From the NCBI RefSeq assembly GCF_022846255.1, contig NZ_AP025682.1: DNA of 64,000 nt. One strand, written 5' to 3'. Within the stretch, counting starts at the first letter, position 1. Every line of letters starts with the position of its first letter. A model generated the notes under the pieces. It was given only the letters and a program-made list of their open reading frames with translations, made no database searches and was not told where the DNA came from. Positions 10,325 to 11,347 of this stretch are shown one piece after another. The DNA comes from Escherichia coli. Lineage in GTDB: Bacteria > Pseudomonadota > Gammaproteobacteria > Enterobacterales > Enterobacteriaceae. The position numbers and the translations under genes are program-made.

Positions 10325-10669
10325 TCAGACCCGCCAGTCACCACCACGCTTTACTGACCGATCACCCTCCTCTTCATGGTTCATTGCCAAACCAGAAACA
10401 TAATAAGGAAGCAGATTATTCACCGTCTGACTGAGGTGCTGAATCCGAACCAGCGCTCCTGATAAATACCCCTGAGAAACACCGTGCTGCTCACAGGCCT
10501 CCCTGCGGGTATATCCCATAACAAGATGCTCCCTGAGCGCATTAATCACTTTCTCACTGTGCATCCCGGATATTTCAATCAATAACCAGAAATGCCTTTC
10601 TGATACTTCCCCGGGCAGCAGAATCCCGGACCGCTCTTTCACCAGATGCAAACAAACCTCCGAATTCAT
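10325..10669 (-). CDS. PapB/AfaA-family fimbrial transcriptional regulator
   Basis: Internal ATG at 10669 gives 114 aa; motif FWLLIEISGMHSEKVINALREHLVMGYTRREACEQHGVSQGYLSGAL matches recalled AfaA/DaaA/PapB family. Confidence 0.65.
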   Translation of the reverse strand: MNSEVCLHLVKERSGILLPGEVSERHFWLLIEISGMHSEKVINALREHLVMGYTRREACEQHGVSQGYLSGALVRIQHLSQTVNNLLPYYVSGLAMNHEEEGDRSVKRGGDWRV

Positions 10670-10785
10670 AACCCCGTTTACTCTGACAGGGAAACAAACT
10701 CTCAGCATCAGCGCCGGAATGAACACCGGTAATCCCCTGCCTCGCCACCAACATTACCATGGAGTTTAATGCTGTAAATATGATT

Positions 10786-10905
10786 ATTGACGATCTTTTT
10801 AACCAAATAACAACAATTAAACAGGTTATAACACTACTCCAGTGCAAAAAATACAGCACTGAAATCCAGAAATCATATAAAATACAGATAAAAAGATCGT
10901 TTTTT
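10786..10905 (+). promoter_or_regulatory. Pap-type phase-variation switch region: two GATC (Dam) sites 103 bp apart in inverted ACGATCTTTT boxes
   Basis: GATC at 10792-10795 inside gACGATCTTTTt; GATC at 10895-10898 inside aaaAGATCGTttt (reverse-complement ACGATCTTTT); lies between the divergent PapB-like and PapI-like genes. Confidence 0.6.
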
Positions 10906-11212
10906 GCATAATTTCTGATATTACATAACAACATGAAAATATCTTATTTTCTGGACATTAATCAAAAAATGATTCACATGATTTAATTAAATACATGAAA
11001 TTACAGGAGGGTAAAAATATTACCGGGGGAAACAAAAGCGGACAGAAAAATGACTGTGGAATTTTCTTCTTCCGGCAGAAAATAATCGTTGTATTATATA
11101 CGTCAGCTGCCAGCCCTGATGGCTTTACATGGCTGAAATTAACAACGACAAGAGTTCGTATGGTTTGATATACCATGCACGATATTCAGGTCCACACGGG
11201 AATTAACAGAAT

Positions 11213-11347
11213 ATGAAAGACAATATACTGACGTTCCTCACGGAGCTGAAAACTCCGTGCCGGACAACAGAAATTGCCATACATTTTGGGCTGAGTGCCT
11301 ATCAGGCCAGATATTACCTGATGACTCTCGAAAAGGAGGGAATGTAG
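11213..11347 (+). CDS. PapI/AfaF-family regulator, probably C-terminally truncated by the adjacent IS
   Basis: MKDNILTFLTELKTPCRTTEIAIHFGLSAYQARYYLMTLEKEGM* matches the PapI winged-helix core; only 44 aa; stop abuts the IS3-family end. Confidence 0.5.
   Translation: MKDNILTFLTELKTPCRTTEIAIHFGLSAYQARYYLMTLEKEGM

Follow-up and report, generated by a model that had tools for sequence, protein, structure and literature searches.

The 64-kb window analysed here, a 64,000-nucleotide stretch of the Escherichia coli chromosome, carries a gene cluster that by its content and order is the published afa-8 afimbrial adhesin cluster. Region 10325-11347 of the window, which comprises the regulator genes afaA and afaF and the DNA between them, is very probably the afaF-afaA regulatory module of that cluster: judged by its sequence, a Dam/Lrp/PapI switch of the pap family, whose PapI-like gene afaF has been cut short at an insertion sequence (IS). 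Taken as a whole—a pap-family switch of afa-8, a truncated afaF and, as the predicted outcome, a switch that stays OFF or only rarely turns ON—we regard this account as probable. The Dam/Lrp switch of the pap type is textbook knowledge, and afaF and afaA of afa-8 have already been described as PapI and PapB homologues; the window holds a known afa-8 module, assigned by sequence to a known family, and in this respect offers little new biology.

Inverted GATC boxes and in-register homology to pap

Two copies of the box ACGATCTTTT lie in inverted orientation between afaA and afaF, which are divergently transcribed and flank the control region (Table 1). The sequence occurs exactly twice in the window (0.19 copies expected from shuffles, with 0 of 100 shuffled versions reaching two), and the GATC tetramers, with first bases at 10792 and 10895, are 103 bp apart. 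A first-pass annotation, made from the letters alone, had reported such a pair between the two regulators, inverted and at this distance, and our analysis confirmed both its coordinates and its specificity.

To place the region among known systems, we compared it with the pap region from CFT073, an afa-3 region from a plasmid and a fae-like region from plasmid pSE11-3. In a sensitive blastn search of 10727-11212 against 5,426 complete E. coli genomes, every region returned was of the afa-8 type, with an identity of at least 95%, and none belonged to pap, sfa or daa; homology was therefore shown by an alignment anchored on the proximal box, run ungapped over 250 bp with shifted registers as a control. 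In register, afa-8 shared 119 identities with pap, 127 with afa-3 and 127 with the fae-like region, compared with a mean of ~76 and a maximum of 95 per 250 out of register. Identity peaked at both boxes and again on that side of the proximal box which faces the promoter. The inverted boxes recur in all three comparison regions, where the distance between the GATCs is exactly 102 bp, and ACGATCTTT of the box is invariant across pap, afa-3, the fae-like region and afa-8. Lack of flanking conservation around the boxes had been named in advance as grounds for giving up the switch; the flanks proved to be conserved in register in all three comparisons.

The promoter side of the proximal box contributes further landmarks. 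A G-N2-TTT block lies ~30 bp from the box, its TTT invariant among the four regions, and the hexamer TTTACA (10773-10778, minus strand) stands 13 nt from the proximal GATC, the same distance as in pap; its position makes it a putative –35 element. Since the alignment is gapless and in register, and since the boxes and TTTACA occupy the same positions, the region is best classified as a pap-family switch at the level of sequence. Published work demonstrated promoter activity for the 300 bp upstream of afaA and validated promoters upstream of afaA, afaE and afaF (PMC3664800). A consensus scan of 10600-11400 on both strands found no sigma-70-like site, a result that is uninformative, as the scan missed the validated promoters upstream of afaA and afaF.

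Could the paired boxes be a chance feature of AT-rich intergenic DNA? Two GATC tetramers in 543 bp of such DNA are indeed near the expectation from base composition (an estimated ~1.5). The full 10-mer, however, is confined to these two sites in 64 kb, and its copies are inverted, lie within one base pair of the family spacing, are invariant in four divergent operons and have flanks that are homologous in register. Shuffles, box invariance and flank homology together rule out a chance origin, to which we assign practically no probability.

The published signature of the family is a pair of GATC boxes 102 bp apart together with a PapI-like protein (PMC2909390). The first-pass annotation had taken the 103-bp distance itself for the hallmark: as a measurement of the window this was right, whereas the family value is 102 bp. 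The difference stems from one extra A in a run midway between the boxes, one of three differences seen between the window and strain CE0007a, all of them outside afaA. Reading afa-8-type relatives base by base gave 102 bp in six of nine, 100 bp in one and 104 bp in one; a search with the 74-bp central segment found 73 bp in 30 of 34 related records and the exact segment of the window in none of the 34. The extra A leaves each of the two site sets intact and shifts their relative helical phase by ~34 degrees. The three contigs with the identical truncated allele (see below) begin at 10899, 10953 and 10993, all downstream of the A run, and the extra A may be a homopolymer sequencing error.

Orphan afaA-switch-afaF modules, 96-98% identical, were also seen in strain 32F4 (L003 6861-7904) and in LAU-OXA (L004 7062-7894). 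These sit on pheV islands that lack afaBCDE, adjoin fragments of hemagglutinin-repeat genes (contact-dependent inhibition type) and have an intact afaF; in 32F4 the boxes are 104 bp apart, with an expanded G run.

An afaF gene cut short at an IS3-family element

Both regulators were resolved by Pfam, whereas NCBIfam has no model naming AfaA and gave the 44-residue AfaF only a weak, chance-level match. The minus-strand gene is PapB/AfaA-like, as annotated at first; its start had been placed at GTG 10726, and here the annotation does not stand, as RefSeq relatives use ATG 10669. In CE0007a, the AfaA protein is WP_001323645.1, an ‘adhesin biosynthesis transcription regulatory family protein’. The divergent plus-strand gene matches the Pfam FaeA family, in agreement with its initial description as PapI/AfaF-like.

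Intact AfaF-8 has 62 residues (MKDNILTFLTELKTPCRTTEIAIHFGLSAYQARYYLMNLEKEGKIKRSPVRRGASTLWEMNS; WP_000654305.1 in relatives). Homology of the window gene to intact afaF ends at 11342, and 11343 is the first base of the IS; the reading frame retains 43 native codons and takes a Met codon and its TAG stop (11345-11347, inside the IS terminal repeat) from the element, which yields 44 residues instead of 62. The reported stop after 44 residues at an IS3-family boundary was thus accurate, and the length of the intact homologue can now be set beside it. The missing 59 nt of the afaF 3′ end are absent from the window, and a second PapI-like gene was likewise not found within these 64 kb.

What is lost can be gauged from the predicted fold. 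AfaF-8 aligns over residues 1-60 to PapI (PDB 2HTJ; E 1.5e-11), and an AlphaFold (AF2) model of AfaF (pLDDT 86.6) shows three helices (2-12, 18-25 and 29-41) and, after them, two strands (45-48 and 57-60). By this model, the truncation removes both wing strands and the family-conserved RSPxRRG loop of the winged helix. The window allele therefore falls short of an intact PapI-like winged-helix co-regulator: 44 of 62 residues are left, and residues 45-62 are gone. Loss of AfaF function is likely on these structural grounds. These two departures from the family, in spacing and in the PapI-like protein, show the allele to be a degenerate copy and do not make it a system of another kind.

The element that ends the gene is a complete member of the IS3 family, with a two-frame transposase, TG...CA terminal inverted repeats and a discrete length in the ~1.2-1.3 kb range. 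Its second transposase frame matches the NCBIfam model transpos_IS3 (NF033516; E 1.1e-81, 275 bits against a cut-off of 160), and it is matched over its full length, at 99.6%, by copies elsewhere. No target-site duplication of 3-4 bp was found at its ends, which are flanked by GAA and GTA. A simple insertion was rejected, there being neither a target duplication nor an afaF 3′ end; the unmatched flanks and the absent 3′ end instead point to an IS-associated deletion or a recombination between IS copies.

The truncated allele is real: its junction is 100% identical in three independent draft or read-derived assemblies (GCA_005387485.1, GCA_005387665.1 and DRR102837). Among complete RefSeq E. 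coli genomes, the junction of truncated afaF and IS occurs in none.

Other afa-8 strains have lost homology on the same side of the module. In MS 85-1 (L009 ~3438-5826) it ends at about codon 9 of afaF, beside ISEc12 (IS21-like), and in CE0026a (L010 ~2877-3630) ~110 bp upstream of afaF, beside IS1A. Including the IS3-family element of the window, afaF-side IS lesions among afa-8 strains represent three different events. Regulatory regions of afa were already known as IS hot spots, and the repeated damage seen here, in three forms, adds afa-8 to them.

Inside the IS3-family element, the Rfam model isrC, a Salmonella Hfq-binding small RNA (sRNA), scores 135 bits at 12410-12532 (minus strand). 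The match falls wholly within the element's first reading frame; what the model picks up seems to be IS sequence, not a separate sRNA gene. Past the element lies a nest of IS remnants (12601-14372 and 18012-18572) with IS110-family transposase fragments (12714-13256), an intact-looking IS630-family transposase (13341-14372, minus strand) and an IS4-family fragment (18012-18572, minus strand). Just past the nest, genes for an MFS transporter (NF008963, above cut-off) and a Gfo/Idh/MocA-type oxidoreductase occupy 15028-17435 on the plus strand; the same pair also follows the truncated afaF in contig BFRG01000147.1.

Proposed working and predicted state of the switch

The mechanism we propose is taken over from pap and laid over the genes, boxes, in-register homology, truncation and IS observed here for afa-8. 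Lrp would cooperatively occupy one of two sets of sites, proximal (GATC 10792) or distal (GATC 10895). In the OFF state, Lrp at the proximal sites would cover the afaA promoter and shield GATC 10792 from Dam, with the distal GATC methylated. After replication, the PapI-like AfaF would increase Lrp's affinity for sites of the distal set, around 10895, a shift for which AfaF would be required; in the ON state, Lrp would sit at these distal sites and activate the promoter, Dam would methylate the proximal GATC and afaABCDE would be transcribed. Either state would be inherited through methylation of the unoccupied GATC, which disfavours Lrp binding. In the window genome, the IS3-family element and a deletion have taken away AfaF residues 45-62, the predicted β-hairpin wing, with the cis elements (boxes 103 bp apart), afaA and afaBCDE intact; the switch would then probably stay OFF or turn ON very rarely, unless AfaF is replaced by a PapI homologue from another part of the genome.

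Dependence of afa-8 on Lrp and Dam is assumed by analogy: expression of Afa/Dr adhesins (the daa and afa relatives) is reported to be phase variable via both proteins (PMC8764528; PMC9820224). The predicted state, in turn, follows from the lost wing and from the behaviour of pap, which without functional PapI shows no OFF-to-ON switching (PMC4546395). For a phenotype actually locked OFF, we judge the case for and against to be evenly balanced.

Several points weigh against a phase-variable switch that the truncation has silenced. The exact 102-bp spacing of the family fails in the window, at 103 bp. In the fae (K88) operon, Huisman and de Graaf reportedly described (in 1995) control by Lrp and FaeA that involves no ON/OFF switching, and the fae-like region shares its box architecture with afa-8. 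No match to the CRP consensus TGTGA-N6-TCACA at 8 or more of its 10 positions was found in 10670-11212; by the same scan, pap has a 9/10 site and the fae-like region none. We found no experiments on afa-8 phase variation in the accessible literature, and a review describes AfaA as apparently having no part in phase variation (PMC12388093). All three helices persist in the truncated AfaF, which might have some residual activity. Finally, the genome is visible over 64 kb only, so that PapI homologues acting in trans may be encoded beyond the window.

This last point is the main reason against calling the switch locked, as the first-pass annotation had suggested it may be. It is possible, if on the unlikely side, that the cis switch works because a PapI-family protein from elsewhere—be it a second afa-8 island, as reported for AL862, or a further operon of the pap, sfa, foc or F17-associated kind—replaces AfaF, in which case the truncation would be silent or would merely alter switching rates. 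PapI-family proteins are highly similar in key regions, as the 60-residue alignment of AfaF-8 with PapI illustrates, and afa-8 strains often carry other fimbrial operons beside the cluster (for example, F17 in MS20649). The window itself, however, offers no second PapI-like gene, and that PapI homologues can be exchanged between operons is an assumption where afa-8 is concerned.

We consider it distinctly unlikely that afa-8 combines pap-like architecture with graded, non-phase-variable regulation by Lrp and AfaF, as in fae, so that loss of AfaF would shift the level of expression. Such regulation would fit the fae-like region, whose boxes are the same and aligned in register at 102 bp, as well as the missing CRP site and the doubts of the review, and the published controls of afa-8 are temperature, sigma-E and AfaR, not phase (PMC3664800). 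Against it, the afa-8 intergenic region has two GATCs, as do pap and afa-3, but in the fae-like region there are three, the additional one at 31 bp; and the daa and afa relatives, as noted above, are reported to vary in phase.

The orientation of the IS raises a further alternative, to which we give very little weight: read-through or an outward promoter of the IS3-family element might drive afaABCDE independently of the switch, comparable to the IS1 hybrid promoter in ST131. The element shares the strand of afaA and does read in the direction of the switch, and IS elements in the afaF-afaA region alter afa transcription in ST131 (PMC8764528). Between its tip and the start codon of afaA, however, there are 674 bp; no promoter-like site emerged on either strand from the scan mentioned above; an outward TTGACC near the tip has, on direct reading of the flanking DNA, no acceptable –10 hexamer 16-18 bp on; and Lrp at the proximal sites would still cover the native promoter.

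For annotation and strain typing, afaF of the window allele is to be recorded as defective, and carriage of afa-8 in this lineage need not mean expression of the adhesin. A bolder proposal, which we think improbable, is that the truncated afaF and the one-base change in spacing are together the marks of a small lineage of E. coli; afa-8 would there have been freed from its own PapI-like control and would depend on the PapI homologues of other operons (cross-talk) or on IS-derived transcription. If it were true, the independent afaF-side IS lesions would suggest selection to disable or rewire the switch.

The afa-8 island and its known relatives

The assignment of the cluster rests on three features: the AfaR sRNA (reported to be specific to afa-8; PMC3664800), the gene names of relatives and the gene order. 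In CE0007a and MS20649, the RefSeq names are bmaE/AfaE-8, AfaD family invasin, usher and chaperone for the structural genes, and ‘adhesin biosynthesis transcription regulatory family protein’ and ‘FaeA/PapI family transcriptional regulator’ for the regulators. The window has the afaF / afaA-B-C-D-E order, the AfaE-8 adhesin, the AfaD invasin and AfaR, a published antisense regulator of afaD; therefore, the locus is the afa-8 cluster, which gives a subtype to the Afa/Dr-like adhesin operon recognized at first pass. The stretch from afaA to afaF (10300-11342) is ~99.5-99.7% identical at the DNA level to 22 complete E. coli genomes.

Table 1 Features of the regulatory module, the adhesin cluster and the adjoining element in the window
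Feature	Position	Strand	Details
afaE-8 adhesin	5219-5731	-	Open reading frame (ORF); RefSeq name in relatives bmaE/AfaE-8
AfaR sRNA	5974-6230	+	Rfam RF02515, 270.5 bits against a gathering score of 100; full-length; between afaD and afaE
afaD invasin (AfaD/SafD-like)	6289-6708	-	ORF, family match; RefSeq relatives: AfaD family invasin
afaC usher	6724-9312	-	ORF, family match, RefSeq relatives
afaB chaperone	9480-10247	-	ORF, family match, RefSeq relatives
afaBCDE, structural genes under putative switch control	5219-10247	-	ORFs, family matches, names in relatives
afaA, PapB-family regulator, first gene of afaABCDE	10325-10669	-	114 aa; Pfam PapB PF03333, E 1.9e-36
Promoter-proximal conserved block	10761-10778	-	Holds the G-N2-TTT element (GGAGTTTAAT) and the putative –35 TTTACA
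Proximal GATC box ACGATCTTTT	10790-10799 (GATC 10792-10795)	+	Equivalent of pap GATC-prox, Lrp site 2
A6 run midway between the boxes	10846-10851		One additional A, hence a spacing of 103 rather than 102; CE0007a has A5
Distal GATC box ACGATCTTTT	10891-10900 (GATC 10895-10898)	-	Equivalent of pap GATC-dist, Lrp site 5
afaF, PapI/FaeA-family co-regulator, truncated	11213-11347	+	Pfam FaeA positions 1-44 of 62, E 6.7e-24
IS3-family element, complete, 1258 bp	11343-12600	-	Transposase frames towards afaF; imperfect terminal repeats TGTAGTGG...CCACTACA

The module is carried on an island of ~43 kb at pheU. A tRNA-Phe gene (pheU, anticodon GAA; 3386-3461) forms its left limit, a P4-type integrase gene (3596-4924) adjoins both the tRNA gene and the afa-8 cluster, and at ~47.2 kb core genes resume (cadC, lysine decarboxylase, a DcuS-type kinase and fumarase). 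The island of strain AL862 has a length of 61 kb, and Lalioui and Le Bouguenec (2001) reportedly described two afa-8 islands in that strain, at pheU and pheV. Identity of the window island with the 61-kb island was not established, the former being shorter. Also on the island, a 632-aa ORF (32883-34781, minus strand) with an N-terminal ATPase motif may be a defence gene; its weak likeness to the retron Eco8 effector, MADS3 and PtuA (E 5e-10 to 3e-6) is far below the family cut-offs.

Set beside the pap operon for the P pilus of uropathogenic E. coli, the module shares the divergent PapI-like and PapB-like genes, the two inverted ACGATCTTTT boxes, in-register homology over a core of ~250 bp, TTTACA at 13 nt from the proximal GATC and a co-regulator whose fold matches PapI (2HTJ). 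It differs in box spacing (103 bp in the window, 102 in pap), in having no recognisable CRP consensus site and no DNA similarity detectable by blastn, and in the length of the intergenic region (543 bp in afa-8, 404 in pap). AfaF is also naturally shorter than PapI (62 against 77 residues, and 44 in the window), and the afa-8 switch would control a chaperone-usher afimbrial adhesin, not the P pilus.

The afa-3/dra/daa systems (AfaF/AfaA, DaaF/DaaA) have the same boxes, there 102 bp apart, and the same architecture, and AfaF-3 is 66% identical to AfaF-8; the afa-3 intergenic region, however, is much longer (~800 bp), and the structural genes are of another subtype. With the afa-8 clusters on tRNA-Phe pathogenicity islands of bovine and human extraintestinal E. 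coli, the window has in common the gene order, AfaR and the neighbouring tRNA-Phe and P4-type integrase genes, whereas its allele stands apart in two respects, an afaF that an IS3-family element breaks off at codon 44 and an extra A between the boxes. As in the IS disruption of afa in ST131 (PMC8764528), the afaF side of the module is struck repeatedly by IS elements; there, however, the IS lies between afaF and afaA, whereas in the window it has shortened the coding sequence of afaF, and the switch between the two genes is unharmed.

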